Source: Ptychodera flava (lineage: Eukaryota). From it: a stretch of 64,000 bases of DNA. The number at the start of each line of letters is the position of its first letter. Within the stretch, counting starts at the first letter, position 1. The stretch is taken from assembly GCF_041260155.1 (NCBI RefSeq), contig NC_091947.1:31834780-31898779 (forward strand), in the 5' to 3' direction. The position numbers and the translations under genes were made by a program. Shown piece by piece: positions 12,726 through 58,417 of the stretch. The notes below the pieces were generated by a model. It did not search any database. It was not told the DNA's origin and saw nothing but the letters and a program-made list of their open reading frames with translations.

Positions 12726-12763
12726 GTCAACATGGGGTCGCAGCCATGTTGCCTCAAAACTTA

Positions 12764-12947
12764 GGGACTGGTCAGTTTCTTCGGCCTGGGGGGGGGGGCG
12801 GTGGATTATTTTTTGCCGACGTCAAAAAGTGGATGACCCCCCTATTCCAAATTTGAAAACAGGGTGACCCCCCCCCCCCCTATTCCAAATTTCTAAAACA
12901 GGGTGACCCCCCCCCCCGGCGCGACAAAGGTAAAACAAAAGATGGAC

Positions 12948-13037
<90 letters not shown>

Positions 13038-14197
13038 TTTACATTTTACATATATTATATTTTAAATAGTCATTCTATGTTTTAGTGAAATTGTTGACAT
13101 GTCAGTTGTAAGATAGGAATTTCAAAGTGTCAATCTTAAAGTTTAAATACAGTACATTTTGAATGAGCTGTATTTTGAATGAGCTGTGAATGTATTTCAC
13201 ACTTTCTCTGCTTAACCAGATGTCCTGAACTGTTGTACAGAAATGGATGTCAATCATTAATATCAAAGAGGAAAAAGCAGTGAATCAAAAACTTTGATGG
13301 GTGTTAAGACTTGCCAACCATCCAATTAAATCTACTGAGGAGCCATAGAGAGCTTTTTTAGCCAAATCTGATGTGTACAGTGTCTGAGAGGACCTTTTCT
13401 TGTGTAACATTGAAACCATAAAAGCACAGCTAATAATGACAAAAACTGCCTTTTTTAACTGTTATTTTGTTCATAAAAAGCATCTTCCTACAGAAAACCT
13501 ATGAAACAAAGGAAAATAATTGCATCAATGAGAAGGAAAGATATCTTGTCATTTTTCTATCTCTAAAATAAGTCACTGTATCAAATATATATTGTGAAAT
13601 ATTTGTGCATGTTGCTTTCTCATACTGAATTCTCACAGAGAGAACAGAAAAGTATCAGGAATTTGTCATCCTTTTCATATGAAATGCAGATTTCATAATG
13701 GTACACTTTCACTTAGCAAAGATCAAGATATCTCTGAAAGTATGGCGCCCGAAGGGGGCGCCAAAAATATGAAACATCCTGATATCTCTGATATATATGC
13801 CTTGTATATTAAAGTCATGCACCTGAAGGGCATGCTGAAAGATGTATGATATATTAAAGTAATGAGCTTGAAGAGCACGCTGAAAAATATTGAACATACA
13901 GATATCTCTGATGTATGTATGCTTGATATGTTAAAGTTGGGCGTGCTGAAAAATATGACTGATTATTAAAGTTACGCGCCCGAAGGGCGCGCCGAAAAAT
14001 ACAACTGAATGATGATTTTGTGGCTGACACTAGCATTTTAGGCAATGATGAGCCTGTGTCAAAATTCAAAAACACACTGACCCCCCCCCCTATTGGGCAT
14101 TTCAAAAACATGGTGACCCCCCTATCACCAAAGTCAAAAACAGGGTGACCCCCCCATGAATCCACCGCCCCCCAGGCTGAAGAAACTGACCAGTCCC
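12764..14197. mobile_element. PIF/Harbinger-like non-autonomous element (MITE) with ~43-bp TIRs and a TTA target-site duplication
   Basis: The 5' end is GGGACTGGTCAGTTTCTTCGGCCTGGGGGGGGGGCGGTGGATT and the 3' end AATCCACCGCCCCCCAGGCTGAAGAAACTGACCAGTCCC, a perfect inverse. TTA flanks it at 12761-12763 and 14198-14200. Internally it has an (AT)n tract at 12957-13032, subterminal CAGGGTGACCCCCC repeats and a tandem hairpin array. There is no ORF. A ~97% identical copy lies at 58166-59578. Confidence 0.85.
13709..13995. repeat. Tandem ~60-bp units inside the MITE, each with a GC-rich stem-loop closing a GAAG loop
   Basis: The hairpins are GGCGCCC-GAAG-GGGGCGCC, GCATGCACCT-GAAG-GGCATGC and CGCGCCC-GAAG-GGCGCG. 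The same array is present in the copy at 59105-59385. Confidence 0.6.
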
Positions 14198-14479
14198 TTA
14201 TTTCTGTCTGCACTCAAAACTCAAAATGTCGGATATGAACCTGAAAAATCGATGCAGTTTTGTCAAACTTTGGCGAAATTTCAGCCTATAGACAAATTTC
14301 ATCTAGGTAAGGTAAATTTACTGAAATTTGATCGACAAATAATCCTGAGCTTGAACGTGACAGCTCGCCTTCTCCGGGAAGTCAAGTATCCAGCTGCCCA
14401 TACACAGTTGCCCATATGGCCAGGTTTATGAGATGTTTTTCAAGCGACGGCGGCAGACCGTACGGGGCTCTGGATGTGA

Positions 14480-15390: not shown

Positions 15391-15744
15391 ATAGAGTAGA
15401 AATCTAAATATGCCCATCTAAATATTAGACATCTACCATCGAGAACAAAAGAAATTTGCTGTAATCTGAATATTTAAGGAGTTTAAGCAATTTCCACTAT
15501 AAATAAAGAACCCCTGCCTCAAACTCCACAAAAGTTGCTAGACATATTTTGCCGTTGTCATGCCATTGCTTCGTTTAATAACTAGTTAATCAAATGCCTA
15601 ATTGACAGGAGGAAATTCAAGACCATATTTGAATAGTAGTATATATTGTCCTCAAAATTACTCTATCACGGCCCAAGTACTCATTGCCTTCAGCAATACT
15701 GCCTTGTTATTATTATTATTATTATTTTTTTTTTTTTTGAAAGT

Positions 15745-15800
15745 CGAAATGCGATTTTTTTTCTCTAAAAGTTAACATAGGGATGGCGGCCATTTTGAAT
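15745..15800 (+). other. Conserved ~60-bp module CGAAAT...AGTTAA.A.AGGGATGGCGGCCATTTTGAAT, one of four copies
   Basis: The same module occurs at 27395-27445 (+), 30800-30860 (-) and 63280-63330 (+), in each case followed by a diverged ~150-bp tail. Confidence 0.5.
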
Positions 15801-17439
15801 GTTGTGTTGGTAAATGATGGGTTGGTTGTTTCTCTAGTACGAGATTTTGTGTGGCGATCCCTGATCCAGTTTAATTCTTTATTTCGAAAAGGGGTGGTTA
15901 AAGTCTCTTTACGGAAAGTTGTAGCAAAATTTTAAGTCTTTGAGTTTCCAAGCGCGAACTCGCTTAAATGAAATATTTAAGGAGTGTATATTACGAATGC
16001 GAGGAGGTTGACGGGAAAAGCGGCCACTTTTGGGTCTCGGTCTGGTAAAAGAAGGCGGCAAAACGTGGACATTTTGTTTGCGCCGCGACTGTGCCACCAT
16101 TATCGTGGCAAATTATTCTTCTGCAACAAACTGGACTTTTGACTTGGTTTTGGAATAGATTAGTCACTGGTAATTGTAGACGATGCAGAAAGATAACAGT
16201 GCAATGGACCACATCGCTGCTGCCAATCTGGCATGACCGTCTCTGTTGTGCTTCTGAATTGGGCTCGTGTTGAGCCAGTGTCGCGACAGCGTGTCAAGTT
16301 ATATCCCTAGGCATATGTCTGCAGTCATCGATCGACCAGCCTTCAGTCCTTGGCCTTGTCAACCTGACGCTTTGTACAATGTTTGGGATGGCTGAAGATA
16401 TTGTCATGTGCAATTTGTTGTAACTCGACATCACCGAGTATGTCATTGTGAGAAAATGTTTTACGGTTTAATTCTAATGTTTACTGTATTGTTGCAGCTC
16501 ATTTAGTACAATGTAAGTAATGCAGGTCTCTGACCAGTTTATATGTATTTGTCTCTGTCTGTGCTTTTCATTATACCCCAATTCTCCAGCCTTCCTGGCA
16601 ATTAGTTTGGCTTGGATCTACTTCAATGCATCGGCAAGGCGTACTCCTATTCTAACTTGTGATTTTGTGTATTTTTGGCTTTTTCCATGTAGCTGTTCTC
16701 ATTCCAGAGAATTCAAGGTTCTAACATCATTTTAATTTTCTCCATTGTAGTGGTTAACAAGCACAGGACACAGCTTTTTTATGGGTTTACCAACTGTTAC
16801 AGCAGACAGTTTCGTTATTTAAAACAGTACTGATAACCAGTTATCCAGGACACTTTTGTGTAAACGAGTACGGATAACTGGAATGCATAACTAATTAAGA
16901 AATATCGAAAGTAAGCAACATGGTTCAAACAATAGACACGAGATAAAAAGTAGTATAAATTTCATTGTCTTGGCAATGCGATTGGCATGGATGTCAGTTA
17001 TATAATAGATTTATCAAGAAATTACTTTTAAGTGAACGTATATATACCTTCACTTAAAAGTAATTTCTTGATATAGTAATATCTTGATACGGAGAACGCC
17101 TTGCCGATGTATCGAAGTAGATCAAAGCCAAACTAATTGCTTGGAAGGCTAGTGAGTTGGGGTAATATAGTCTATATATCCCCTACGTGCCCCAAACTAT
17201 CAAATAATTTTTCAGATAGTGGCTGACAGTGTGTAAAATCTTCTGAGTAAAGGGGTTGTAATCGCAGCTTATAGAGCAATATGTAAAAATAAGAAGGAAG
17301 ACACGTGACAACAAAGACTTAAAACAACCCTGGTATTGATGGTATGAATATACTCACTTGATATCAACAGGGAGACACATAAGTAAAGCGGTACCATGAC
17401 AAGCAGTAAGTTAATCGATGCTGCCACGTTGCAAGTTCA

Positions 17440-18880
17440 CGCAACATATCACCCCAAGAGGCTGCGAGTCAAAATTTGGCAACAATTTTCGTGAAGTTAG
17501 TTCCTCCATCGAGAGTTAATCTGCAACTGCGCCTGCATCACTTCATGACCATATATGGTGATGTTTTATGGCTGGACTGATCACTGGCGACCTATAACAT
17601 TCCTGTGCAAACAAACCTAGCATGATTCAGACACACCTCTACACGTGGATAGCAAAGGGACCTTCAGGGAGCACACCATAAGATATCCTTGGGGTGGTCA
17701 TTGTGTGGATATGCGAATTTCACGTTCATTGATTTGAGATATTTTTTTCAGAGCATGGATACCTTTTCCATCGGAAATCAAAATCATTTTTCTTTTGCAA
17801 TCATAAGCTGAAAATTGATAATTCACATATCCTCTCCTGATATGAAGTTGATGAAGTCTGCTAACATTTCCACATTTCGACCAACCGTCTCAAGATGTTA
17901 TGAATCAGTCGCAGCATTTCAATTAGCCTTCCTAATGTTTGATAACTTTAAGTCACCAAACTTTGTAGAACTCGTTCTCAGTTTAAGGTTCTTTGAGTTA
18001 ATACTGTACCTGCTGTATAGTTTAGGTCCTTAAAATGGCCTGATTAGGGGCAAATGTTTTTGAAAATCCTTAATTTGTTTACAAATAACATTACGTTCGA
18101 GCTATTTTCAAAATTGTGAATAATTGTTGACCATTTGCCAGGTCAGCTCCGTATATATTTATTCAGAATAAATGACCAAGGAGAAAAGAGTATTAAAAGA
18201 ATATCGGCCTCAATGAAATGTGAAAAGTTCTGGAGTGATTTTCTAAGTACTTTGCCGATAAAATCTTCAAGAAACAGAAACAAATGATAAATCACTTCTG
18301 TTTAGCCAAGCTCCAGTCTACATTCAACTCTTGATAAATTCAATAAATCTGGCCGTGTATTGCACTCCGAATCCAGAAATCAGCTGTGCGTAACGCAGTA
18401 TAGACTGAAAACACATGGAGAAAGGGCTTCTCGTCTGTGACTCCACAGTTTTGCTGTACAACTTAATGCTTGTCGAATGTCACATCCTTACCATGTGACA
18501 TTCGACAAGCATCCACTGTAAACAGCTCCAAGCATAAATTAAAGATTCATTTTGTTTACCAAGGCATATAATGTACATTGAACACGATTGGAATGGATTT
18601 GGGAGAATAGGATACACATGTAGTAGTTGGTAGTTGTGTTGGTTTAATCAGCAAATTCAAGCTCATCTACTGTTCTTTTTTGCAACTTTCAGCTATAGGG
18701 CACCGAACACTTTTGATATTGAATTTGAACAATTGAAAGATCCTATTTTCCCAAATTAGTTCCAATCGTGTATTGACCCGACCTGGCCCCTGCGACTAAC
18801 ATTGCCTATTGATTTGGTCGCTTTATAAATATTCTTGATTGACTGTCAACAAATATCAACGACATTGACGATACTTAAAT
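17440..18880. repeat. Dispersed repeat family D; also at 44580-45960, with fragments at 8900-9150 and 49500-49880
   Basis: The copies are collinear and about 90-95% identical. The family contains a perfect 17-bp-arm palindrome CTTGTCGAATGTCACAT-CCTTACC-ATGTGACATTCGACAAG at 18468-18512 (and at 45557-45600). Confidence 0.7.
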
Positions 18881-20239
18881 CTTCCCAGAAGGAGGTTTTG
18901 TCTCCTTTTATTATGATGTCCAAACATGTGGTTTTGAAGTGCTACATGGACTTCTTTACTATCATATCTAGTGTTTCGCACAAATGTACAACGTACATAA
19001 AATTTTTATGAGGGCCGAGTTGTGTCTATTAATAGTTTAGGGATGTACATATCCGAAAAGGATTTGACCTCAGTGCCCTTGACTAGAATACAATGACATG
19101 ATTATGAATAGAGAGAACGTATTTGATATTTGACCAACTTCCGTGCCCATTTCAAGCAACACATTTCGAGAACTCCTTTAAGCATATTCAGGTCTTAAAC
19201 TTGTCAAGGCCGTAGCACATCTCCTGACTCCTCTGGGAGGCATTATGGGAAACATGAAAAGAGCAATGAAGGTTAACGGTAGAAAACAAAGTCGTGCACC
19301 AGCGTCCCCAATAGACCCAACATGAACACATTGCCTCGTCATGAGCGGGGGACACACTTCATGAAATCTATGATATGCAGGTCGGTCTCTCTGTATACAG
19401 TAGTAGAACAACACGCCAACGCCATATTTAGACTTCTTATAGCCAATAAATCTACTTCCTTATTTTGTGAAGGTGTGTTTTTTCGTCGAATGACACGGCA
19501 GCCGTACAAGAAGTCATTTTTGTCATACAGCTCAATGTACGACTTAGGCCTATTTTGTCGAATTAAAAAACAGATCAAGATATGACGCTTAGCCCACACT
19601 TTCTGTTGTTTCTTTTATTTCTAATTCATCTTGATAGATTTGATGGAGATAGTTATGATCATTCTCTTTGCTCGTAAATTAAGTTCCTTCACCACTCTAC
19701 AGCATTAGAGGGTAAAAGTTCGAGTTTCGTCACAAAAACGAAATGGTACGAGATTAAAGGTCATGCACAATGGACAAAGAGTTGAAAATGCAGTCAGACC
19801 ATATATGGCATAGACATACTAGTACACCTCAATCGTCGGAGGGGACACATACCGACAGCAATGTATGCGTGAATGAGTACAGGGGACATGACCTGCAATG
19901 ACACGAATACTAAAACCAAACAATAAACAGTTGTCCTTTATTCATGTAGAGCTGTGCGTCTACGTCTAACATCCATGTCGCTATGGGTTTTTGGTGAGGC
20001 TGTTTTAAGAAATTTAAAGGTGTAGAAGCATAAAATGCTTTCCCTTTAAAATGGTGTGCGTAGGATGTGATTTGTTTGGATCATAAAGGCTTACAAATTT
20101 ACGTGAGACTGTGAGAAAACTCTTCATTACGCCTACACAGGTATGATACCGTAACTGAACTGCAAGTCATCTTCATTTGGGAGCCATTCACACTGAAAGC
20201 CGTCAAATTAACTGCCCCGTATACATTGGTCTGCTTGGC

Positions 20240-20583
20240 TTCCAGCCACTATAGGGAAAAAGTGCGTGACTAGAGCGAGAAACTGACGCTTTCTCGCAAT
20301 CGGTGAGAATCTGTTCTTATCCTCACCGCTGTCGGTGAGAAATTTTAATCTCCACTGGAGATTGGTGAGAATGCTCCTTGGCAAGAATCAAGTGTGAGAA
20401 CAAATTCTCATCGGTGAGAATGATTATTCTCACTAAGTACAGCGAGAATTGAAATTCACTGGCGAGAATCATAAAGACTCGCCGTTCAGAGTCTTTATGA
20501 TTCTCGCCAATGAACGGGGCGAGCCTTAATGATTCTCGCCAGTGAATTTCAATTCTCGCTGTACTTAGTGTGAATTTTGTGAG
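20240..20583. mobile_element. 345-bp insertion, present only in copy I, carrying nested palindromes and five GGTGAGAAT motifs
   Basis: It is absent at the paralogous site 53575, which reads ...CTTGTTTCAGCTTTGACTCAAG.... There is a perfect 20-bp inverted repeat GGCGAGAATCATAAAGACTC-GCCGTTC-GAGTCTTTATGATTCTCGCC at 20452-20500, nested inside a ~45-bp inverted repeat at 20436-20480 and 20525-20570. Confidence 0.6.
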
Positions 20584-23500
20584 CTTTGACTCAATAACGC
20601 TGGCGCACTTAACGCAGAACGGTGCGGTATGTTGTTAGGTCGGAGTATCCGGCATGATACCCCTTTTAACTTACTTCACGATTTCGCTCATCCTCTATAC
20701 GTTATCCACATATTGTTGTGTCAGGAAGAGCAATAAACATTCAATATGTATTGCTTGACGACGTGTTTATCGAGACCTTAATGAATTTCAATTCTTTTTT
20801 CTCAGTGTGCATTGTAGTGTAGAATGTTTTACAGACGCAGCGAGATGCATATCCCGTTGGCGCATCCCTGTTTCCTTTTGACAAATAAACAAAATCGAAA
20901 CACTCGACATTTCAATTTTTATGGTGTTTCTTCACGGCTGAAAGAGACATCGACCACGTATCATATATGTTGGTCGATAGGAAAACTTTATTGTCAATCG
21001 TGGAAACAAAAATGACAAAAAACTACATGAAGGCACAAGGGCTTCATTAACTGACGGGTCAAAAGAGTACTTTAGTTTCTTGTTACACTTTAATTTTGTG
21101 ACATCTAGATCGACATCAATGGTTCATGATGATACTTCCAATCAATAGCATTATTTTGAAGTCAAACCGTTGCACAGTATTTTCACATCCTTCAGCGCAC
21201 CGTCATTTTTTTCAAGTGCCTTTTCTCCCCAGCCCCCTTCGGACCTGTTTTGTGACCGCAGCCTCATGTGAATGAATCTGTTGTCTTCAGCGTACACCTT
21301 ATAATAACGATACTTGAGATTCGTTCAGATCCGTTTTGCATTCGATATGGTCACAACGAAACATCTCATTTTATACGAAGAAAATGTCTAACAAGATTAT
21401 GTATGGGCGAGATCTGTATCGATCGAAGTTTGCATACTGAAGAAAAGCACAGAGAGCGTCCTCAACGGATGGCCTCAATAAGTCATGATTGGACTGTATT
21501 GCCAGACAGCGCTGGCTTTGAGTTTTCAACGAAGAATGACATTTCATCAATGACAACCAGGACAGTGCCTCCGTGACCATCACCGCGCGATATAACCTTT
21601 TGAGACAGTATAGGTCATAACTCATGGCAACCATTGTGAAGTAATTACAAGTTTCTTTACAGACTCGCATGGGAAAGAGCATATCTTCACGACCATATAG
21701 AGTAGCTTTCATCATCTTAACGACGAGGTATGACCTTTGTATGACGTGACTGACTTCAGTAAATTACTTGAAGGTGGTGAGAGGAAAAGCATTGGTGTTT
21801 AATATAAGGCTTTGCTCTTGTTAAGGTCATATGTATGACGATGGCATTAATTTTGTCACTTTTCAGCATGCTAGACGCAACTGGTATATCAAGTTACTTC
21901 ATGAATTTGTCTAACATTGTTGTGAAACCCTATTTTGGAGTTAAGTACATTCGCGATTAAAAAGTATATACATGTCATCATGTGAAGTAGGTATAGTATT
22001 ACACAAGATGGAAGTTTCGTATTTTAATTTCTTAATACCCATGACTCAGGTAGTTCTGCGCATTTTATGAGTCACAGACTTAAACTCGTTTAGTTGAAAA
22101 CAAGAATTCCAATTCAGAAAATAGTTTTAAGGTGTTCTCTATTTCGGTGAAATAATGAAGGGGCAAAGGGCTTCTTTGATATTGGAGCACTTTTTTGATG
22201 AAAGCTTGATGTACATGTCATTCTCATTGAAATCACCTACTCCTGAACCAAGATAACCTCCCTCAATATGTCTTAATCAGTGACACCGTATTCACCATCA
22301 ATCTCTCCACTGCTTGTATAGCTCTTCAGTGAATAGCAAAGACAACGTGTTCGGCATGTTCGCCTGGCCGAAGCCCGGCAGCCACATAGCCACTCGGTTA
22401 TGCTAGCCTACAATAGTACAGTAATATCATATACTGTGATTCTTTATTGAATAGACAAGTCGTATAGACATCGTACATATTAAATATGATTATTATCCCA
22501 GAAATGCGCCAAGCACCTGTGCTCTCTCTAATGCCATCTGAATAGCAAAGACATCCATTGGTTTCAATTTCGTCACCTTTTCGCATTTCAGTATGTAAAA
22601 GTTTCGCGGTATTTTTCTATTTCTCAGAATTTCAACTCAAGGGAGGTATGTTAATATGGCATCAAATCAATTCCAGCAATCGTTATCAGTCAAGTCAAGT
22701 AAATCACCAGGTCCAAGAAACAATACAAAATACACACTGACAAAATCAATAGTGCAATCTCGAACCACTAGTGGTGGTACCAGGTGTCTGGAATGGGTAA
22801 GCGTACCCATCAAGTCACAAGTAATTGTCAGGTAATCAGATAGTTGCCAAATTACTGTTGTGAGTCAAAGCCAGGAATACCGTCTCTCATCATCTGGGTA
22901 ACAGATTTGTCATATTTGAACATCTCCATATCTACCATAAAACTTCTGAAATGATCTAGCCAACCTACTTCGTGAAAATCTGTATCACTAGGTTTAAGAC
23001 GAAAAAGTTGTGTCTTACTTGAAAGTCTTCATATGAATTACAAGCTCTACAGTATCTCAAGAGTTGTGAAATGTATACACCATAAGCTTGACCGGACGTC
23101 CGATGAAATATAACTGGTTAAGTAGGGAAAGTTGTTGATTTCAAAATTAAAATCGTCCCTTTTGTCATACTTAAGCCTATTTTGTCGATTTTTTAAAAAA
23201 AAAGATCAAGATATGACGCTGAGCCCACACTTTCTGTTGTTTCTTTTATTTCTAATTCATCTTGATAGATAATTATGATCTTTCTCTTTGCTCGGAAAGT
23301 AAGTTCTTTCACCACTCCACAGCATTAGAGGATAAAACTTCGAGTTTTGTTACGAATACGAAATGGTACGACAGTAAAAGATCATAATGGACAAAGAGTT
23401 GAAAATACAGTCAGACCATATATGGCATAGACATACTAGTACACCTCAATCGTCGGAGGGGACTCATACCGACAGCAATGTATGCTTGAATGAGTACAGG

Positions 23501-25869
23501 GGACATGACCAGGAATAACACGAATACTAAAACCAAACAATGAACAGTTCTCCTTTGTTCTTATACAGCTGTATGTCTACGTCTAACATCCATGTCACTA
23601 GGGACTTTTGTGAGGCTGTTTTATGAAATTTAAAGGTGTGGTTGCATTAAAATGCTCTCCCTTTAAAATGGTGTGTGTAGGATTTTATTTGTGTGGATCA
23701 TAAAGGCTTACAAATTTACGTGAGACTGTGAGAAAACTTTTCATTACGCCTACACAGGTATGATACCGTGCCTGAACTGCAAGTCACTTTATTTTGGGAG
23801 CCATTCACACTGGAAGCCGTCAAATTATCAGCTTCAAGCGTATACATTGGTGTGCTTGGCTTCCAGCTTTGACTCAAGAACGCTGGCACTCTTAACGCAG
23901 AACGGCGCGGTATGTTGTTAGATCGGAGTATCCGGGATAATACCCCTTTTACCTTACTTCACGATTTCGCTCATCCTTTACACGCTATACACACATTGTC
24001 GTGTCAGTAAGAGCAATAAACCTTCAATATGTATTGCTTGACGACGTGTTTATCGAGACCTTTATGAATTTCAATTCTGTTTTCTCAGTATACATTGGAG
24101 TATATAATGATTTACAGACCCTGCGAGATGTATATTCCGTTGGCACATCCCTGTTTCCTTACCACGACTAGGGCTACTAAAACACAATCTAAACACTTGA
24201 CATTTCATTAACATTCACATGTATGAAAGGTCAATTTTACAATTTATACGGCGTTTCTACACGGCTTAAAGAGACATCGATCACATTTCATATAAGTTGG
24301 TCGCCATAAACACATTCTTATCAATCGTGAAACAAAAATGACAAAAACTACAGCATAATTTATAGCCGGCCACTTCATCCCCTCAAGTATTTCGTGTGAC
24401 TGATATGACATCAATATCGTTGAAGCACAACGCTATACTTTTGATTACCCCTTTCAAGCATACCGATGGAATGGTACCTAAGTCAACCAATACCTCACCA
24501 CTGAACTGAATTGCCATGTAAAGTACTAGTACTTGTTGCCGTCATCCTATTCTATCTAAATCTCGTGTACTAAATTCTTCCACACAGAATTGGTCTTTGG
24601 GAAAACGCTTCGTTGTCATTGCCGTGGAAATATACATGGGGTTTGCGTAGCCAGCTAATTCTTAACCATCAATCTGCACTGTGTTTTATCAAGATTTTAC
24701 AAAACTTACCAACATCATTTGCCATGTTTCAGGTAACATATAAAATAACGATTTAAAAGCAAGCGAAAAGTCCAATCTTGCCCAATTTAATATATGAGGA
24801 AAGATGCAAGCAGTGTTTTCCGTCTTTTTGTGTTACAATAGTGAGACTTACAACTAAAAGAAATATCCCAGTTGTATCGACACAAGTTCAAGCAGCGCCC
24901 TCAGACACAATCCCCCCACCGATCGCCCTTTCAGCAACCCTTAAACTTTGACTGTCCATATCAAATGAGGTCGATGTAATTTGGCATATCAGGAAGGTCA
25001 GATAGATACACAGAAGGTTTTGCGTTCGGTGACTTCTCTCGGTTGTGTCTGACAAAGGAAGCCCATGCAGAATTCTTTCCAGAAATGAATATGGCCGCAC
25101 CTGGAAAATATAAACGATTTAAATCGCACTGAACTTCAAATATGATACAAAATAAGACAAAAAGGATATTTCACACATGGTAAAATACTAAGCAGAACCA
25201 TGACAAGCAGACAAAGAACCATCCTGACGGGTATTTGGCAAATTCGTTCAATAGACTTTGGTGTAACAATGCAAGAAAGTGAAAATATCTTGAGACTTTT
25301 AAGAGAGAGTTGGTATACAAGACAAATTGTATTGATAAATGGATTCTTACATGTTGTCATCATGCTCAATGTCATGATAAGCTGAACAAAATAATTCTTT
25401 CGTTAAAAGCCGCTGCTAAAAATGCTGATTTAGCAGTGTCTTGGTAATTTGAACAGCTAATGACTGGTGTCTTTTGAAAGATCTTAAGACACTGTTGGAG
25501 GAACATTTAAGAATATGATATGAAGAAATGGTAAGAATTCAATCTAATTAAACTCCCGCTGCCTCTTTGAAAGATGTACTATTTCATAAAGTGCTCAGCG
25601 TGCTGGGTAAAATTGTTCAGATATATATTCATACTATGTTTCCCAGGATGTCAGGAATTCCGTCATCGACCTACATTAGTTTACAAACGAAAGTTATAAT
25701 CAACTATGTCTTCAACACGATATGGCATAAATAGACATTGATGACACCGTATATCGTACTGCATCACTGAACAGTCAAGAAACGTAAGATAGACCCCCAC
25801 CTTTGGGCTTATATCAGGATTACAAAATCCCTTAGAGATATTCCCTTCTTTTACACTGGAGCCCACTAA

Positions 25870-26022
25870 TTACTTACCTTCACATATCTCTTGTTCCACT
25901 AGTGACAGAAAGTAGTCGTCACTGAAGACAGATGGCTTAGGGGATAGCTTATTTGCCATTGCGATGACGTCAACTGAGGAATAAACTTTTGGTATCCTTG
26001 GTGACAGATACTTGACTATTCC
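25870..26022 (-). CDS. POFUT-like gene copy I, terminal coding exon reading GIVKYLSPRIPKVYSSVDVIAMANKLSPKPSVFSDDYFLSLVEQEICEGK followed by a stop
   Basis: The acceptor is tctgtctcag|GGAATAGTC at 26022 and the stop TAA is at 25870-25872. Copy II differs by an in-frame 3-bp indel, so the reading frame is conserved. Confidence 0.55.
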   Translation of the reverse strand, partial: GIVKYLSPRIPKVYSSVDVIAMANKLSPKPSVFSDDYFLSLVEQEICEGK

Positions 26023-26149
26023 CTGAGACAGAATCAAGCAATGATACAACACATGAAATGACAACAACAACACAATCACTGAGTAAACACATTAAAAGCT
26101 TGTCATGCAGAAGAACTTGCACCTAATTTTACGCTACGAAAAATAAAAA

Positions 26150-26163
26150 AAATCAAAATTCGA

Positions 26164-26222
<59 letters not shown>

Positions 26223-26340
26223 GGTGGTGGTGATGATGATGATGATGATGATAATGATGTTCATCATCATGAACATCATCATCATCATCATCATCATGAA
26301 CATCATCATCATCATCATCATCATTAGTATCGACCAATCA
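26150..26340. repeat. (CAT/ATG)n microsatellite with a (GTG)n segment, intronic
   Basis: It is a long imperfect trinucleotide array. It produces the spurious poly-His, poly-Asp and poly-Met ORFs in the track. The paralog at 62095-62160 is much shorter. Confidence 0.95.
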
Positions 26341-26679
26341 GCCCAAAACATTCAAGGATGTGATTTCAGATTTCAGATTGACAATAGAACCGCTAATGTT
26401 GCTAAACTACTTTCTTTGTTTTACCTTAAATTGCTTTGATGGTTCTAGGGACTGACGGATAGTTTTTACGAACTCGCCTCGGTGACGACTGACAACAGTT
26501 TTTGTCATTTACATGTATATTATATTCACCACACTATTATGTCAATTCCCTGTTTGGACCAAGTGCCTTCATTTTATGAAAAACACACACATGTAATCTA
26601 AATATTGCATTTGTACGAATAACACAAAATAATTTCCATGTAAACAACACATTTACTTCCCCGTCACAGTAATTCTTAC

Positions 26680-26821
26680 CCGCTTGATGCTTGGAGGTTG
26701 TGAAACGTATATGCATTGTAGGTCGTACGCCTTCGGAAGCGTGCTTGCACTTTTTAAAAGAAATTCTTCTTTTTTCTGACAAGCAGACTTACTGGAAATT
26801 ACAGCAGATTTATCTGTGCAG
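26680..26821 (-). CDS. POFUT-like gene copy I, internal exon encoding ...CTDKSAVISSKSACQKKEEFLLKSASTLPKAYDLQCIYVSQPPSIKR
   Basis: The acceptor is ctctacaacaacag| and the donor is AAGCGG|gtaaga at 26680. YDLQCIYVSQPPS resembles the LDAQSVYVATDSE block of O-fucosyltransferases. Copy II carries a 21-bp in-frame insertion in this exon. Confidence 0.5.
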
Positions 26822-27026
26822 CTGTTGTTGTAGAGAAGATCAAAATACCCTTTGATGAGTTGGTTTATCATCGCTAAATATGCTAGCATATAAAATTTAC
26901 TTTTTTCTTTTTTTTCAATAAATCTGTCGTAATATTCTTATACCTTCATATTCACTTTCTAACGATTGACGTCAACCTTACGTCATTCAATTGATCGACA
27001 CTTGTGTTTCTGTCTGTCTGTCTGTC

Positions 27027-27059
<33 letters not shown>

Positions 27060-27701
27060 ATGGACGGCTGAAATTTACAATAAAATTCATAAATTGGCCC
27101 GGAATATGAAGGAATTTGAAACTTTCAGTGCACTATTTCAAACATCTGATGCGGAAGTGCAAGTACTTGATTTTTTTTTAACTTCGGTAATTCTCTGTAC
27201 ACGCGCAGCAGTTATAGAATTAATTACAGACTTGGCTAAATTTTGAAGTTAAGGTAGAATGTGCCTCGGGACTCGGACAGATATTCGAATATCAATTTTT
27301 TATACTAAATTATTCTTTCCTGATCTACATCTTGCGGGGGCTCATTGTAAAGCTCTTGGGAGTCAGAAAAATTTAACCGTCTTAGCTTTGCAAGAACCGA
27401 AATTTTTATTTTTCCTCATAGAGTTAATACAGGGATGGCAGCCATTTTGAATTTCAAATATCGGTAAGTGTTAGGCAATTTGTTTCTCTGGTACCAAACT
27501 TTGTACAGACACCGTTGATTTTTATTCATGAATTGGTTAGAGAATGGTTGAAAGTTTCATCAATCCGGAAAGTTTGAGCAAAATACTTCCTAAGTGTGAA
27601 ACATAACGGCTTCATCAAAGGACTGATGGTGGAAATCGATTCTACAGTACTTCAAATAGGTGAACGACATTAAAAAGATCAAGAGATTTAAAATGACTCA
27701 C

Positions 27702-28230
27702 ATTTCGTCTAGCTTACTTCTCCAATGTACAGCAACAATAGGCCGATTCCCACACATATTTCGGAGAATAGTCCTAGCCACTAGTCTGATTGAGGGCGCC
27801 CTGACAAAATGAACTTCAACAATTTCGTCCAATTCTTCCCCTTTTCAATATCATGTAGTTGAAGTCTAGGGGTTGGTACATTCCAAAACACTCCTGACGC
27901 TGGCTCAGCAATATTTTTCTGACTGTATCCACTTGGCTTTTTGATACAGATTCTGTATCGGGTGCATTGACACTGAAAATGTCTAATATCTGTTGGCGCT
28001 CTTTTGCGTATGACGATTCATGACTGTCCATGTTTGGGACTGTCGGTTCAAAATGCGGAGCACGAACGACAATTTCCAGGTTGTAGTTGCATCTCAGCTG
28101 GAAATCCTCAATGGTGGCGACTGGCAGTATGTTTTGCAAACTCTCCACACTGTATGTCTCGTTGAACGGCACGACACTGGCAGCCGTACCCTCAGAGTCA
28201 TCGACGAACGGGACGAGGACAATAGTTCTG
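27702..28230 (-). pseudogene. POFUT-like gene copy I, large exon containing the NRTIVLVPF and HWRSKLDE (HxRxxD-type) motifs, with two 1-bp deletions relative to copy II
   Basis: The translation reads ...LNRTIVLVPFVDDSEGTAASVVPFNETYSVESLQ...FEPTVPNMDSHESSYAKERQQILDIF...QPLDFNYM, is then frameshifted, and restores in another frame as ...RPIVAVHWRSKLDE before the donor AAAT|GTGAGT at 27702. The deletions lie in A and G homopolymers near 27830-27850. The upstream exon boundary is not resolved. Confidence 0.45.
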
Positions 28231-28559
28231 TTCAGAACAATGCAAACTTGACAGCAACTTGAAAACTTAATAGTAACACATATAGTGCGTATACTACATG
28301 AAAAGTATAAGATTTCCGGGGTTGTTGTAGATGAAGATGTATTTTGTTTTAAAAGTTTGACGACTCGAAGATCAAAATAAAAACAGGTCTATAATTAGGA
28401 AGGGATGAAGTACGCTGAAACATAACTGTGTTTTTGTTTGGGAAATGACCGTTTTGTTGTTTAATTTGACACTGCAAAATTAATTTCGTACAGTTCAATC
28501 ACGCATCCTTGCTCAACTAAATAATTTATTTGAGTCAGTTTTGTTGATGACATTACAAT

Positions 28560-28706
28560 GTCACTCGCCTCCCGCGAATTGTTCAGTCTTTTGGCTATTT
28601 GACTCAGCGTTGTAAAATATTGCGACACATGTACAGGGTTGTATATAAATCTGCTGACATGGCTGCTTCTGATGACGGGTTTGCTTTCACTGATTCTTGG
28701 GGACAA
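28560..28706 (-). CDS. Candidate upstream exon of the POFUT-like gene, encoding ...KPVIRSSHVSRFIYNPVHVSQYFTTLSQIAKRLNNSREASDI
   Basis: It resembles O-FucT motif I, which reads GRFGNQ...HFLGSLAFAKLLNRT. A possible donor GACATT|gtaatg lies at about 28573. The exon limits and its phase relative to the next exon were not resolved. Confidence 0.3.
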
Positions 28707-30431
28707 TGTTTCAGATGAGTTTCACTTCATCAGCTATCTTGTTGTACTTCCAGCAACTTTCGACGTATCACTTTCTTTGTAAATATGCAGAGTGTCTATA
28801 ATTGGCAGTCATGCCCACAGGCGTCTGTCACATAAGGAAGGTGACTCAAAAGTTGGCGATACTTGTTCACTCAATACAAATGCGAAAGAGAAAGGGCGAC
28901 CTAACAATCAATATACACAGTGTCAGTCATTTTTGCATTGGTGTGGGAATATATTCTCATACGGTAAAAACACTCCTGCACAATACCAAGAGAGTGTATA
29001 GAACAACCCTATTGATAGCATCGACAACAAATTACACGGATTTGCATCTTTGCTTTCAGGCAGACTATTATCATGGAAACGTGTCTAAAACATCGCAACC
29101 CCTGAGAAATTTGATGGTCACAATATTCGACATATCTTCCTATTAAAGGTCAATCAATGAATCGTTGTTTGAGTAAGTTTTGGAGCCACGAAGAACAAGG
29201 TAGAACTGAGAAACAATCACTTACTCGTTGTGAGGAAAAATCACTGCTGAATTGAGGGATTCTGTCAATGCAATCATTCATGGGTGATTGTGTTGTGTTT
29301 CTGGTGTGTCTTACAGTCTGCAATTACTCAATGATTTGGTGTTTTTACATGTAGACTCTGAAAGTTATGGACGTGTTCCGTTTCCTGTAAATAACTTCAG
29401 GATTAGAGCAGAAATCCCGCTATTATTCCCAAAATTCAGCAGAGCTATAAAAAATGTAATGTGAATAAGAGTGTATTGTCAAAAGACATGAATCAGTGAT
29501 ATGTGAAAACATGCCTGGATATTTTATTGCTCTTGAATACAATTGTAGAATTAAAAATTGTAGAATTAAAATAACAAGTTACAGCGCAGGAAACTTTTCA
29601 ACAATTACAATGTACATAAAACTGAAAATGTGCCATAGAGGGCACTCTTGCTTTCACCGCCACATACAAGTGATGTCGTGTCATTTTGAGATGCCAGGCA
29701 AAATGATATATTGTGCAAATAACAACATATTTAACCAAGTGTTGCGACACTGTGAGCGTTGTTTCGAATTTTTGTTGCTAGCAAGTTAATCCATATGCAC
29801 ATCTTTTACAAGTTTGGTGAGAGAAAACAAAAATCAAATTCAAGTATATGTTAGAATACAATGATGGTGACAGATTATCTGAAGCCCTTGGAGCAATATT
29901 TGCCACCAAGAGTCCATGGTTGAAGACTACAACAGATGAAAAATATTTCATTTTAAATGAGTAATACTGAAACTTGCGATGACATTAGCGTTATTTTCAT
30001 TCTAGAAAACGAGTATATTTTTTTATTTTCTCCGTAAAGTATTAGTGGTGAAATGGAAATTATTAGCCTTGTAAGCACAATGGATTGAGCATGATGTGCC
30101 ATGTTGTGTTGACAAATGAGTTGGGAATGTGTCTGGACTAAACTTCAGTCATCAAAAATAAAATTTGAAATTGCACACATACAGGGTAAGGCTGTGTTGA
30201 GAAATTTAAGACATCTCATATTATTTAGCGGTTAAAACAAAATATTTCTATAAAAGTAAAACAAAAATAATGAAAAAGACACAAATAGTTACAGCTCAAG
30301 CTTATGTAAGAAGCTTTTGATATGTGCAAGATATGTTGATTATCCTAAGTTTGAATGGTAATACTACAATATGACATTGGAGACTAACTGAATAATGTGG
30401 TAACAACTTGATCCCATCGGTCTGCCGTCAA

Positions 30432-30494: not shown

Positions 30495-31280
30495 CTGCAA
30501 ATAAAGATAGGCCAATAAGTTTAGAGATTTCTTGTAAAAGTGTAATACCATTTGTGTGGGCTTGATAGTAATGTTCTAGTTGCAGAACAGAGCAACTAAC
30601 ACAATATGAAGTAAGAGAGATTTATCAGACTGTTGTTCAAAGGTAGTATGCGCCTCGAAAGTGAAAGACTTCAACTTTGCTCAAGCATTCCTCAAGGAAT
30701 AGTTCAACCATTCTCTTTCAAAATCACAAAGAGAAATTAGGGGTCATTGTACAAATTTTGGTACAAGAGAAACAAATTACTCAAGATTTATGGATGTTTA
30801 TAATTCAAAATGGCCGCCATCCCTGTGTTCACTCTATGGAGAAGGATAAAATTTCGATTTTTCGAAAAAACTAAAATGGTGAAAAGTTTTCTTACATAAC
30901 TAGTGGTATATAAGAAAAGAATGTAAAAGTTTGACTGAATACCCGTCCCTGAGGCGCATTCTACCTTAAATTGGTGGGTATATTTGTAATTTGCTGGCCT
31001 AGTGATTAACCATAACTTCAAGCACTGTCTAGTGAAAGAGCTGAATGTTTTGGAATAGAAGGTGTTATGGTTTAGCTACATAGATACACCTGAGATGAAG
31101 AAGGGGATAACTTGTTATATGTGAAAGATGGCGAACAGTGGGAGATGGTATGTTCAGGGATGAAAGATATCTGGAGTGAGAGAGAACAGATAGGAGTAGA
31201 GTGACTGAAACTATACATGAAGCTGGTTAAAATGGTGGAACAGTGTCGCCAAAAACAACAAACTTAATTCACATCCTTAC

Positions 31281-44510: not shown

Positions 44511-44579
44511 GTGGAGGTGCCCAACGTCCACTGTGAGGTCAGTTAACATATCTTTTCATGTTTGATGTTTGATGTTTAC

Positions 44580-47500
44580 ATCTATCAACTGCGCCTGCAT
44601 CACTTCATGACCATATATGGTGATGTTTATGGCTCGACTGATCACTGCCGACCTATAACATTCCCGTACGTGCAAATAAACCTAGCATGAGTCAGACACA
44701 CCTTTACAGGTGGATGGCATAGGGACCTTCAGGGAGCACACCATAAGATAATCTGGGGGTGGTCATTGTATAGATATGCGAATTTTGCGTTCAATGATTT
44801 GGGATATATTTTCAGAGCATGGATACCTTTTCCATTGGAAATCAAAATTATTTTACTTTGCAATCATATGAATTCTTCTTGAGTAAAAGCGACGAGGCTG
44901 AAAAATGATAATTCACATTTCCCCTCCTGATATGAAGTTGATGAAGTCTGCTAACATTTCCACATTTCGACTAACCGTCCAAAGGTGTTAGTATTTCAGT
45001 CGCAGCATTTCAATTAGCCTTCCTCATGTTTGATAACTTTAAGTCACCAAACTTTGTAAAACTCGTTCTCAGTTTCTTTGAGTTAAAACTGTACCTGCTG
45101 TATAGTCTGGGTCCTTAAAATGGCCTGATTAGGGACAAATGTTTTTGGAAGGTCCTCAAATTTTGCTTACAAATGATATTGCATTCGAGTTATGTTCAAA
45201 ATTATGAATAATTGATGACAATTTGTCAGGTCAGCTCCGTATATATTTATTCAGAATCAATGACCAAGGAGAGAAAAGAGTATTAAAAGAATATCGGCTT
45301 CAATAAAATGTGAAAAGTTCTAGAGTCATTTTCTAAGTACTTTGCCGATAAAATCTTCAAGAAACAGAAACAAATAATAAAACACTTATTTGTTACATTC
45401 AATACTTAATAAATTCAACAAACCTGGCCGTGTATTGCAATCCGAATCGAAAAATCAGCTGTGCGTAACGCAATATAGACTGAAAACACATGGAGGAAGG
45501 GCTTCTCATCTATGACTCCGCAGGTTTTGCTGTACAACTTAATGCTTGTCGAATGTCACATCCTTACCATGTGACATTCGACAAGCATCCACTGTGAACA
45601 GCTCCAAGCATAAATTAAAGATTCATTTTGTTTACCAAGGCATATAATGTACATTGAACACGATTGGAATTAATTTGGGAGAATAGGATACACGTGTAGT
45701 AGTAATGTTGGTTTAGTCAGCACATTCAAGCTCATCTACTTTTCTTTTTTTGCAACTTTCAGCTATAGGGCACCGAACACTTTTGATATAGAATTGAACA
45801 ATTGAAAGATCCTATTTTCCCAAATTAGTTCCAATCGTGTATTGACTCAACCTGACTCCTGAGACTAACATTGCCTATTTATTTTGTCGCTTTATAGATA
45901 TTTTTGATTGACTGTCAACAAATGTCAACGACATTGACGATACTTAAATCTTCCTCGAAGGAAGTTTTGTCTCCTTTATTATGATGTCCAAACAGTGGTT
46001 TTGAAGTGCCACATGGACTTCTCTACTATCATATGTTTCGCACAAATGTACAATGTCATACAATTTTATGCGGGCCGAGTTGTGTCTATTAATATATTTT
46101 AGGGATGTACATATCCGAAATGGATTTGACCTCAGTGTCCATGACCAGAATACAATGACATGATTATGAACAGAGAGAGAACGTATTTGATATTTGACCA
46201 ACTTCCATGTCCACTTCAAGCAACGCATTTCAAGAACTCCTTTAAGCATATTCATATTTGTCAAGACCATACCATGTCTCCTGAGTCATCACGGAGGCAT
46301 TGTGGAAACATGAAAAGAGCAATGAAGGTTAACAGTAGAAAACTAAGTCGTGCACCAGCGTCTCGAATAGACCCAACGTGAACACATTCCCTCGGTATCA
46401 GCGGGGGACACACTTCATGAAATCTGTGATATGCAGGTCGGTGTCTATGTATCTACAGTAGTAGAACAACACGTCAACGCAATGACACATTTAGACTTTT
46501 TATAGCCAATAAATCTTCCGACTTATTTTGTGAAGGTGTGTTCTTTCGTCGAATGACACGGGCAGCCGTACAAGCACGAGGTATATTGCGCCTCGAAGAC
46601 ATATTAGGACTCTCCAAATTTTACAATTCTGTTTTGGTCTACCACTTGTCGGGGCTCATTTTGAAGCCCATACAGTCGGTAAAATTTTTACCTGCTTAGT
46701 TTTGTGAAAATTAGGGATGGAGTGGAATGTATTGCCGCCTAGCGCTGGTTTGAAGAATGACATTTCAACAGTTACAAGTAGGACAGTGCCTCCGTGGCCA
46801 TCACATAAAGAAGAACCCACGCCCGCGCGATATAACCTTTTGTGACAGTATAGGTCATAACTCATGGCAACCATTGTGAAGTAATTACAAGTTTCGTTAC
46901 AGACTCGCATGGGAAAGAGCATATCTTCACGACCATATAGAGTAACTTAGCTTTCATCATCTAAACGACGAGGTATGACCTTTGTATGACGTGACTGACT
47001 TCAGTAAATTACTTGAAGGTGGTGAGAGGAAAAGCGTAAATGAGTGTCAGTCTTTCAATCCATGCCATTTTAGAATGAGGATTGATAATGCAAATAAAAA
47101 TAGCCGTTTTTCCTTACATATACTCTTCTTTCTAGTGAGATATTACATTTCAGAAAATAGCGTCAAGTATTTTACTAAAATTAATTTTTATCATTAATAC
47201 CAAACTTAAGGTTTTTTACCCCAAATATACACCCACTTCATCCTTCAAGTAAACTACTGCTATCATACTAAACTTCAAAGTCTCTGCTTTTGAAAATATA
47301 TGGTATGAGGGGGTTTCCTTATCATCTTTGATGAGAAATATTGCTTTGAAAAAAAACTGTTGGCAACATGCAGCTTCACCTTAACATGAGGCTCTGCTCT
47401 TGTCAAGATCATATGTATGACGATGGCAACAATTTTGCCACTGTTCAGCATGCTATACGCAACTGGTATAGCAAGTTACTTCATGAATTTGCCTAACATT

Positions 47501-49880: not shown

Positions 49881-49886
49881 TACTTA

Positions 49887-58000: not shown

Positions 58001-58165
58001 AATGAACAGTTCTCCTTTGTTCTTATACAGCTGTATGTCTACGTCTAACATCCATGTCACTAGGGACTTTTGTGAGGCTGTTTTATGAAATTTAAAGGTG
58101 TGGTTGCATTAAAATGCTCTCCCTTTAAAATGGTGTGTGTAGGACTTTATTTGTGTGGATCATAA

Positions 58166-58341
58166 GGGACTGGTCAGTTTCTTCGGCCTGGGGGGGGGGG
58201 GCGGTGGATTATTTTTTGCCGACGTCAAAAGTGGCTGACCCCCCTATTCCAAATTTTGAAAACAGGGTGACCCCCCTATTCCAAATTTCTAAAACAGGGT
58301 GACCCCCCCCGGGCGCGACAAAGGTAAAACAAAAGATGGAC

Positions 58342-58417
<76 letters not shown>

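Follow-up and report, generated by a model that had tools for sequence, protein, structure and literature searches.

Within a 64,000-nucleotide stretch of Ptychodera flava DNA (hereafter the window), a minus-strand gene resembling protein O-fucosyltransferases (POFUTs) is present twice. The locus raises the question of whether two coding genes have been maintained or whether the pair is decaying. The probable answer is that the locus is a tandem duplicate of a PF10250 glycosyltransferase gene, from a family expanded in hemichordates, and that both copies are damaged by complementary lesions.

The window contains a colinear segmental duplication in which ~18.9-28.1 kb corresponds to 52.2-64.0 kb at 88-97% identity. 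The gene is carried in tandem by both duplicate segments, as a first-pass annotation of this DNA had stated, with a spacing of ~36 kb. Divergence across the duplicated block is patchy (0.8-11%), with many indels. Most of the sequence between the copies is unique; a third partial copy, of older date, also lies there, and no N gaps were found in the window. One insertion was located in the downstream flank of copy II:

58165-59579, no strand assigned: MITE-like insertion of 1.4 kb with 32-nt terminal inverted repeats

This element is missing from copy I, so its insertion postdates the duplication. Exons for LNRTIVLVPF, PIVAVHWRSKLDE, YDLQCIYVSQPPS and DVIAMANKLS...SLVEQEIC were found on the minus strand in copy I and copy II alike, in agreement with the O-FucT-type motif exons reported previously. 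The exons of the two copies and a signal downstream of copy I are as follows:

27702-28265, minus strand: copy I exon 2 remnant, SFQVAVKFALF / LNRTIVLVPF ... PIVAVHWRSKLDE, placed by alignment with copy II and by tblastn with XP_070539511.1 (P0001)
26680-26821, minus strand: copy I exon 3, CTDKS...YDLQCIYVSQPPSIKR, with a 21-bp deletion at ~26733
25878-26022, minus strand: copy I exon 4, GIVKYL...SLVEQEICE-G, with the junction adopted by the NCBI model P0141
24961-25100, minus strand: copy I terminal exon, (G)AAIFISGKNSAWASFVRHNREKSPNAKPSVYLSDLPDMPNYIDLI followed by TGA (24963-24961), included in P0141
24786-24791, minus strand: ATTAAA poly(A)-like signal, ~170 nt past the copy I stop
63573-64000, minus strand: in-window part of copy II exon 2, LPVATMEEF...PIVAVHWRSKLDE, frame open
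62512-62674, minus strand: copy II exon 3, 21 bp retained, …LPKAVTKLLEAYDLQC…
61817-61966, minus strand: copy II exon 4 as annotated, reading through to DK and a TAA stop (61819-61817)
60845-60984, minus strand: copy II terminal exon, outside the annotated product, 23.4 bits (E 4.5e-6) with an independent HMM

Copy I had been delimited at 25870-28706. Gene homology was found from ~28267 and does not reach up to 28706, and the terminal exon falls outside that span. The upstream part includes one segment that had been assigned to the gene:

28464-28721, minus strand: ORF SRFIYN...IAKRLNNS, outside the gene

This ORF was considered as motif I and rejected. It is missing from the annotated protein XP_070539511.1, it matches neither the N-terminal nor the full family HMMs, and exon 2 already encodes the motif I-to-NRT stretch contiguously.

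Family membership was assessed with profiles and with predicted structures. The gene had been named O-FucT, of POFUT1/GT65-like type, with HMM profiles proposed as a check. Against Pfam PF10250 (O-FucT), XP_070539511.1 scored 37.0 bits and a full reconstruction with the terminal exon scored 45.5 bits; the gathering cutoff is a whole-protein score of 31.5 bits. The family signal far exceeds chance, and the O-FucT assignment was thereby upheld. Profile coverage rose from 10-195 to 10-324 of 326 once the terminal exon was added. A rough initial join of the copy I exons had scored 31.3 bits, just under the cutoff. An exhaustive profile search returned 894 representatives at E<=1e-3 (148 at E<=1e-30). 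The named proteins, sampled to ~rank 104, were all hemichordate; matches from sea urchin, Styela, Amoebozoa and Pigoraptor first appeared at ~1e-42 to 1e-30, and no plant sequences were present among the sampled matches. Literature searches for a hemichordate expansion of the POFUT-like family returned nothing relevant.

A single-sequence search of the PDB gave noise only (pseudoazurin), and the POFUT matches came with the profile search. The family profile matched CePOFUT2 at E 1.4e-7 and CePOFUT1 at E 2.8e-7; human POFUT2 (4.4e-5) was matched more weakly than mouse or human POFUT1. AlphaFold models of the paralog P0002 (pLDDT 84) and of XP_070539511.1 (pLDDT 78.5) were then compared with the PDB using Foldseek. 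The top 28 matches of P0002 and the top 16 of P0001 were all POFUT1 or POFUT2, with best E-values of 1e-12 and 4e-8, respectively. The predicted models have a GT-B fold, with POFUT structures as nearest solved neighbours. On these profile scores and predicted models, the gene is a member of the POFUT-like glycosyltransferase family PF10250, greatly expanded in hemichordates. The family stands roughly as far from POFUT1 as from POFUT2, and the GT65-like part of the earlier name was not retained. Profile and Foldseek E-values for POFUT1 are no better than for POFUT2 and identity is 14-17%, which argues against a POFUT1 (GT65) orthologue; a POFUT2 (GT68) orthologue is equally disfavoured, as the gene is no closer to POFUT2 than to POFUT1.

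The motifs were compared with those of CePOFUT1. The H-x-R motif is found as PIVAVHWRSKLDE in both copies, aligned to PFVAVHLRN of CePOFUT1 (His238/Arg240), and its H and R do not vary among 16 paralogs. In CePOFUT1, these residues are the guanine contact and the catalytic or beta-phosphate arginine; Ser355 and Thr356 bind the beta-phosphate together with Arg240, Phe357 makes a stacking contact with guanine, and GDP binding is lost in the F357A and R240A mutants (PMC3180450). The C-terminal S-T-F-type motif is found as S-A-W, aligned to STF, in the terminal exon of both copies, and the family segment SnWSqfVreeR aligns to STFSHIVKRER of CePOFUT1. S-A-W is joined to the remaining ORF by a canonical splice site in copy I only, the copy II donor being deleted. 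The reference motif I is G-R-F-G-N-Q, with Arg40 and Asn43 in contact with ribose and fucose. At this place the family reads GGGxNxQ[YF], whose Q HMMER pairs with Gln44, so that the conserved N is one off Asn43. In XP_070539511.1 the motif reads LGLRLSDQY, with no N; this stretch lies beyond the window in copy II and is missing from copy I.

The ancestral gene product would have been a type II membrane protein in which a transmembrane helix at the N terminus and a disordered stem preceded the catalytic domain. This domain would have contained H-W-R (equivalent to POFUT1 His238/Arg240), DD-Y and a C-terminal S-x-W...R (equivalent to Ser355/Phe357). By analogy, it may have bound a GDP-sugar, most likely GDP-fucose, and transferred the sugar with inversion; both donor sugar and catalytic mechanism are extrapolated from structures 14-17% identical.

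The SLVEQEIC exon had been taken as the last one. A further exon was found in each copy, at 25100-24961 and 60984-60845, and encodes the nucleotide-binding S-x-W...R motif in both. With it included, the family alignment shows no variation at F395, S401 and W403 and almost none at R411. All three introns agree in position and phase with those of the Glandiceps paralog P0015. With an independent HMM, the copy I terminal exon scored 22.2 bits (E 1e-5). The terminal exons of the two copies encode the same amino-acid sequence, with two synonymous differences. A first terminal-exon candidate at 25506-25375 (...ISCSNYQDTAKSAFLAAAFNERIILF) was discarded: it has three frame-breaking 1-bp indels between the copies and no family HMM match.

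Copy I exon 2 carries three 1-bp deletions. Two were scored on the alignment relative to copy II DNA, at 27852/27851 (AA to A) and 27842/27841 (G5 to G4). The third, at ~28235, was placed by comparison with the copy II protein only, SFQVAVKFALF-stop being followed by LNRT in a different frame. The first-pass annotation had described a disrupted frame with two single-base deletions in the HxRxxD exon; the disruption and both deletions were recovered, and the count had missed the one near 28235. In exon 3, the 21-bp deletion is flanked by AGGCG microhomology. Seven family-conserved residues (AVTKLLE) are lost, which lowers the profile score by 16 bits; with an independent HMM, exon 3 scored 9.9 bits in copy I versus 21.8 bits in copy II. 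The exon-4 donor AAG/GTAAGT (the slash marks the exon boundary) is intact and consensus, and the intron begins at 25877. No poly(A) signal was found in intron 4. No copy I 5' exons were detected with family HMMs: residues 1-98, as judged against the copy II protein only, are encoded nowhere upstream in the window. The NCBI model of copy I, P0141, is a 160-aa C-terminal fragment that starts at an internal ATG (27757-27755), and it matches copy I exons 2(part)-5 at 100% identity. Since the frame is disrupted in exons whose counterparts in the paralog are intact, and essential parts are lost, copy I (28265-24961) is read from its sequence as a pseudogene, of the unprocessed type because the introns are retained.

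In copy II, which runs from beyond 64000 down to 60845, the exons are 100% identical to XP_070539511.1 (391 aa), the in-window part of exon 2 corresponding to residues 146-287. A 3-bp deletion at 61824/61823 lies on the exon-4/intron-4 boundary and has removed the GT donor (TGTGA---TAAGTAA, against AAG/GTAAGT in copy I). This 3-bp difference had been reported as a frame-preserving indel in the last exon; the difference is real but hits a splice donor instead of coding sequence. As a result of the donor deletion, XP_070539511.1 ends in EICDK-stop, without the S-x-W...R motif, and its nucleotide-binding domain is missing the final two strands and the helix. Its truncation would thus stem from the donor deletion and not from the end of the gene. 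The sole in-phase alternative donor is a weak cryptic site, T/GTGATA at 61828/61827, which when spliced to exon 5 yields an in-frame EQEIC/AAIFISG product. With an approximate matrix, the cryptic site scored 1.6 bits versus 12.5 bits for the intact exon-4 site (8.7-12.5 for the gene's other donors). The truncated product is probably inactive, or at best poorly expressed via the weak cryptic donor.

Copy I would thus lack detectable 5' exons and have undergone three 1-bp deletions and one 21-bp deletion, while keeping the exon-4 donor and the terminal exon. Copy II would have kept its coding exons intact and lost the exon-4 donor to the 3-bp deletion, its product stopping at DK. Each copy being damaged differently, the locus would reflect ordinary duplication then decay, not a new kind of system. 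We infer that copy II has lost its function, and when this decay took place. In gene-family surveys, neither product should be counted as an intact enzyme, the 160-aa neighbouring 'protein' being a pseudogene fragment.

Selection was examined by comparing the two copies. The dN/dS ratio was 0.37 (P = 0.016), with pN well under the intron rate; this suggests past constraint, as modest evidence and the only evidence internal to the pair. Exon divergence differed from that of the adjacent introns (Fisher P = 4e-7), but not significantly from that of random non-coding windows of the whole block (permutation P = 0.16). The contrast is not robust because block divergence is patchy. Polarising the amino-acid changes with the family profile gave no signal, the substitutions of the two copies fitting equally (208.3 vs 207.3 bits). 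Together, the dN/dS of 0.37 and this equal fit sit uneasily with a copy I that was 'dead on arrival', and suggest that it may not have evolved freely for the entire time since duplication. Three indel events were found in the compared exons, all in copy I and none in copy II, for a neutral expectation of 3.1 per lineage. Constraint on both copies had been argued from the frame-preserving indels. The 21-bp difference in the internal exon is genuine, but it deletes a conserved segment in an otherwise dead copy, and the 3-bp difference destroys a donor. The indels carry no evidence for constraint. Frame-preserving indels are weak evidence of constraint unless checked against splice sites and conserved residues.

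Four other explanations were weighed. That both paralogs were kept as coding genes, as the frame-preserving indels were said to indicate, and that the decay of copy I into a pseudogene is very recent, is doubtful. The dN/dS of 0.37 with its low pN, and the equal fit of both copies' substitutions to the family profile, are what such a history would leave, but one indel removes conserved residues and the other a splice donor, the exonic indel load of copy I equals the neutral expectation, copy I has no 5' exons, and measured against the whole block, exon and non-coding divergence do not contrast significantly. It is unlikely that copy II remains functional by splicing at the cryptic donor ATAT/GTGATAAG, which would give an enzyme two residues shorter (…EQEIC-AAIFISG…) and make DK-stop an annotation artefact. 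Splicing from this donor keeps the phase (T+GT = Cys) and leaves the ORF open as far as the shared stop, no change breaks the frame in copy II exons 2-4, exon 5 is protein-identical in both copies and no poly(A) signal precedes it. Against this stand the low score of the cryptic donor on the approximate matrix, the loss of two aligned residues at a junction where the family alignment is ungapped, and the read-through chosen by the NCBI pipeline.

The two remaining explanations blame the assembly. The published P. flava assembly was built from PacBio reads with MARVEL and polished with Pilon (PMC11175523), so some 1-bp deletions could be errors. Copy I as an intact gene, with its 1-bp deletions produced by long-read consensus and by short-read polishing on a near-identical duplicate, is nevertheless quite improbable. 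The deletions do lie in short homopolymers, and the dN/dS and profile-neutral substitutions resemble those of a constrained gene; however, two of the three are in 2-base runs, no comparable errors occur in copy II exons, the 21-bp deletion with its AGGCG microhomology and lost conserved segment is atypical of consensus error, and residues 1-98 are encoded nowhere upstream in the window. Very improbable is the false tandem placement by the assembler of diverged haplotypes of one locus. Heterozygosity is high in the genomes of marine invertebrates, and the assembly needed Purge Haplotigs, with high heterozygosity mentioned for the companion species (PMC11175523). Yet the copies are 36 kb apart, separated by mostly unique sequence and the third older partial copy, without N gaps in the window; they diverge by up to 11% with many indels, their TE content differs, and tandem paralogs of the same family also occur in Glandiceps. 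Decay of both members of a genuine tandem duplicate remains the preferred explanation.

The gene was compared with the closest known systems. It resembles POFUT1 (GT65; PDB 3ZY2-3ZY6, 5UXH, 5KY9) in its PF10250 domain and GT-B fold (Foldseek E 1.5e-12 for P0002 and 4e-8 for P0001) and in shared motifs: 'NRT-hydrophobic-L' after motif I, H-x-R (His238/Arg240), DD-x-Y (Asp334) and S-x-aromatic...R (Ser355/Phe357). It differs in its identity of just 14-17% and in a profile E-value (2.8e-7) no better than that of POFUT2. POFUT1 is a soluble enzyme of the ER lumen, whereas the hemichordate proteins begin with a transmembrane anchor and a stem. GRFGNQ of POFUT1 is replaced by GGGxNxQY in the hemichordate family and by LGLRLSDQY in the duplicated gene, and each genome has many paralogs of the family in place of a single-copy orthologue. 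POFUT2 (GT68; PDB 4AP5, 5FOE, 8AY1) shares PF10250 and the fold (Foldseek E 1.7e-12), gives the best profile match (E 1.4e-7), and its C-terminal 'A.yFIGs..StF...i.edR' aligns with the terminal exon. Identity is 13-17%, and the differences in topology and copy number noted for POFUT1 apply here too. The name 'POFUT2' on Saccoglossus relatives is an automatic UniRef label and was not taken as orthology. FUT8/NodZ (alpha-1,6-fucosyltransferases, GT23) have the same superfamily fold with H-x-R-type and C-terminal motifs, but the structural match is much weaker (E ~1e-6 for P0002 and 5e-3 for P0001).

By description, the plant PF10250/GT106 'putative O-fucosyltransferase' family is also similar, with the same Pfam domain in type II membrane proteins that have multiplied extensively in a lineage-specific manner. 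Some plant GT106 members (RRT rhamnosyltransferases) use UDP-rhamnose. Plant PF10250 (GT106) members are reported to be associated with the synthesis of pectin (rhamnogalacturonan I), as opposed to O-fucosylation of proteins. The plant case shows that PF10250 families can expand and that the substrate cannot be read off the 'O-FucT' name.

The duplicated gene is a new member of the known PF10250 family and no new kind of system. The hemichordate POFUT-like expansion, with >100 50%-identity clusters across Ptychodera, Saccoglossus and Glandiceps, may merit a dedicated study, the duplicated locus itself being an ordinary case of duplicate decay. It is possible, though tentative, that the hemichordate clade is a distinct glycosyltransferase family with its own acceptor specificity and rapid tandem birth and death; the locus would then show a duplicate pair mid-death, with complementary lesions. 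Co-expression of the complementary fragments of copy I and copy II is less likely still. For a membrane-anchored clade equidistant from GT65 and GT68, acorn-worm secreted or mucus glycoproteins are examples of acceptors that could be envisaged.

The locus holds two tandem paralogs in decay, members of a lineage-expanded family resembling protein O-fucosyltransferases (POFUT). The motifs named in the first-pass annotation were all recovered on the minus strand, in copy I (about 28265-24961) and copy II (from beyond 64000 to 60845) alike. Copy II exons were 100% identical to XP_070539511.1 of the acorn worm Ptychodera flava, the source of the window (P0001; 'uncharacterized protein', 391 aa).

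A profile search of 1.84 billion representatives returned 894 relatives at E ≤ 1e-3, 148 of them at E ≤ 1e-30. Named proteins sampled to about rank 104 were all from Saccoglossus, Ptychodera or Glandiceps; in the sampling, sea urchin, Styela, Amoebozoa, Pigoraptor and metagenome proteins entered at about 1e-42 to 1e-30. AlphaFold models of P0001 (pLDDT 78.5) and of the Saccoglossus relative P0002 (pLDDT 84.3) had only POFUT1 and POFUT2 as top fold matches (E 4e-8 and 1e-12, respectively). A transmembrane helix (3-28) and a disordered stem (32-76) were predicted in the P0001 model. The family profile fitted CePOFUT2 and CePOFUT1 equally (E 1.4e-7 and 2.8e-7). On CePOFUT1, the family HWR was aligned to His238/Arg240, DD-Y to Asp334/335 and SnWSqfVreeR to S355-T356-F357...R. 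In that enzyme the motif residues bind the beta-phosphate and stack against guanine; the F357A and R240A mutants no longer bind GDP (PMC3180450). The ancestral protein would have been an inverting GDP-sugar (probably GDP-fucose) transferase of Golgi-type topology. The Pfam O-FucT family (PF10250) also holds non-fucosyl enzymes from plants. Motif I of P0001 (residues 88-98, encoded beyond 64000) is degenerate (LGLRLSDQY vs the family consensus GGGxNxQY), which hints that the gene lineage was already divergent ahead of the present lesions. In Glandiceps talaboti, a further member was found beside the paralog P0015:

OZ203268.1, 15556-16164: second member of the family (48% identity to P0015 residues 22-223)

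With about 4.5 kb between P0015 and this downstream member, tandem arrays of the family exist in another hemichordate too.

The SLVEQEIC exon had been taken as the last. P0002 runs on beyond EQEIC with YRADYFIASCKSHWSKFVMADR, and its counterpart, AAIFISGKNSAWASFVRHNR, was located about 780-840 bp downstream in both copies by sensitive tblastn. The exon boundaries were therefore revised by adding a terminal exon (tblastn, HMM):

25100-24961, minus strand: exon 5 of copy I
60984-60845, minus strand: exon 5 of copy II

Exon 5 has a strong acceptor (ttttccag/GT), is compatible in phase with the copy I donor AAG/GTAAGT and terminates in TGA; its protein sequence is the same in the two copies. It scored 22-23 bits (E about 1e-5) at positions 379-418 of 424 in a family HMM built from 15 paralogs, this locus being left out. 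Its addition raised the Pfam O-FucT score of P0001 from 37.0 to 45.5 bits and profile coverage from 10-195 to 10-324 of 326. The proposed O-FucT assignment holds. In the family alignment F395, S401 and W403 were then invariant, and R411 nearly so. The P0015 genomic locus has the same three intron positions and phases: phase 2 (codon before Cys), then phase 0, then phase 1 (two codons past the Cys of EQEIC). P0141, the 160-aa NCBI model of copy I, has exactly these junctions, including EQEICE-G-AAIFISG. ATTAAA lies about 170 nt past the exon-5 stop in both copies, and no poly(A) signal was found in intron 4 of either. The two annotated products are complementary fragments, neither a complete enzyme: P0001 contains the whole of the protein as far as EQEIC, and P0141 begins shortly ahead of HWR and reaches the true C-terminus. 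By itself P0141 gave no Pfam match. The SRFIYN...IAKRLNNS segment (ORF 28721-28464), previously assigned to the gene, had no family HMM match and is absent from P0001, in which motif I to NRT reads KKYLFPMHSLGLRLSDQYESFKVAVKFALFLNRT; its assignment to the gene does not hold. Copy I exon 2 is contiguous from SF(Q)VAVKFALF through LNRT save for one 1-bp deletion.

Two in-frame indels had been read as evidence of coding constraint. Both differences are real, but the 21-bp event removes conserved residues and the 3-bp event a splice donor, so this argument does not hold. The seven residues are present and ungapped in the family alignment, and exon 3 scored 21.8 bits in copy II vs 9.9 bits in copy I (15-paralog HMM); the 21 bp, flanked by AGGCG microhomology, were therefore deleted in copy I, at a cost of 16 bits on the family profile. 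The two 1-bp losses reported in copy I were confirmed at 27852/27851 (AA to A) and 27842/27841 (G5 to G4), where the copy II frame is open. A third frameshift probably lies between SFQVAVKFALF, followed by a stop in copy I, and LNRTIVLVPF, which resumes in another frame; the comparison is with the P0001 protein (FALFLNRT) because the copy II DNA lies beyond 64000. Sequence coding P0001 residues 1-98 was not found anywhere in the window, family HMMs included. No intron interrupts P0015 at the position corresponding to QYE/SF, so the loss of copy I homology at about 28267 may mark a breakpoint within an exon.

The 3-bp difference after SLVEQEIC is not coding; it falls on the exon-4/intron-4 boundary (aligned as TGTGAAG/GTAAGTAA in copy I vs TGTGA, a 3-bp gap and TAAGTAA in copy II), so the GT donor of exon 4 is gone in copy II. 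The annotated product reads through to DK-stop. On an approximate matrix the only in-phase substitute donor, T/GTGATA, scored 1.6 bits and the remaining donors of the gene 8.7-12.5 bits; if T/GTGATA is used, an EQEIC-AAIFISG product would follow. The truncated product scored 38 bits lower on the family profile. The counterpart of the terminal exon in the P0002 model forms a core strand (321-324) and a helix (329-341) with pLDDT >90, so the DK-stop product is without part of the nucleotide-binding domain.

The window is eukaryotic in composition (about 38% GC, introns and microsatellites), with no Ns over its 64,000 nt. By self-BLAST, about 18.9-28.1 kb and 52.2-64.0 kb form a colinear duplication (88-97% identity), which on the copy II side is broken up by two inserted segments, each about 1.4 kb long. 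Other repeats were:

44576-49886 vs 17516-23933: third partial copy of the gene's downstream flank, older, 85-93% identical (self-BLAST)
1-1809 and 50377-52203: DDE_3 (PF13358) transposase-like element, 98.5% identical
320-1039 and 50698-51243, minus strand: its transposase-like ORFs
58165-59579: non-autonomous MITE-like element of 1.4 kb with 32-nt terminal inverted repeats (AGGGACTGGTCAGTTTCTTCGGCCTGGGGGGG), copy II downstream flank
12763-14198: its sister, 96.6% identical

The older partial copy, which is without the POFUT-like gene itself, indicates that the locus was duplicated in more than one round. The second DDE_3 element adjoins the copy II block at its low-coordinate edge (about 52.2 kb). 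The MITE-like element is absent at copy I's downstream flank; the two flanks carry different transposable element (TE) content.

The published assembly was made from 60x PacBio reads with MARVEL, Purge Haplotigs and Pilon (PMC11175523), so single-base errors at isolated sites, or a spurious duplication, may have arisen there. Against such an artefact stand the 21-bp and 3-bp events, the lack of 5' exons in copy I, the unlike TE content and the mostly unique sequence at 28-44 kb between the copies; together they argue that lesions and duplication are both real.

Over 279 shared codons dN/dS was 0.37 (Nd 12.5, Sd 9.5; Fisher P = 0.016), and pS (5.1%) was similar to intron divergence. Exons differed by 2.6% vs 7.2% for adjacent introns. 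Random non-coding windows reached the exons' low difference count with P = 0.16, and non-coding divergence over the block ranged from 0.8 to 11%: about 1% at 21500-24000 vs 56200-59900, and 10-11% locally in introns 2 and 3. Gene conversion or segments of unequal age may underlie this patchiness, which undermines simple exon-versus-intron comparisons. The compared exons carry three indel events, all of them in copy I, a load near the neutral expectation of 3.1 for a single lineage; copy II has none. Amino-acid substitutions left the family-profile fit of the two copies equal. These data fit a copy I dead on arrival beside a constrained copy II and constraint on both until recently alike.

Introns of the gene carry further repeats:

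26164-26324: long (ATG)n/(TCA)n microsatellite, copy I intron 3; copy II array about 100 bp shorter
27027-27059: long (TGT)n microsatellite, copy I intron 2
27362-27582, 63242-63460, 30676-30895 (inverted) and 15724-15955: interspersed repeat, short (about 220 bp), 67-74% identity

The last occupies intron 2 in both gene copies and two further sites.
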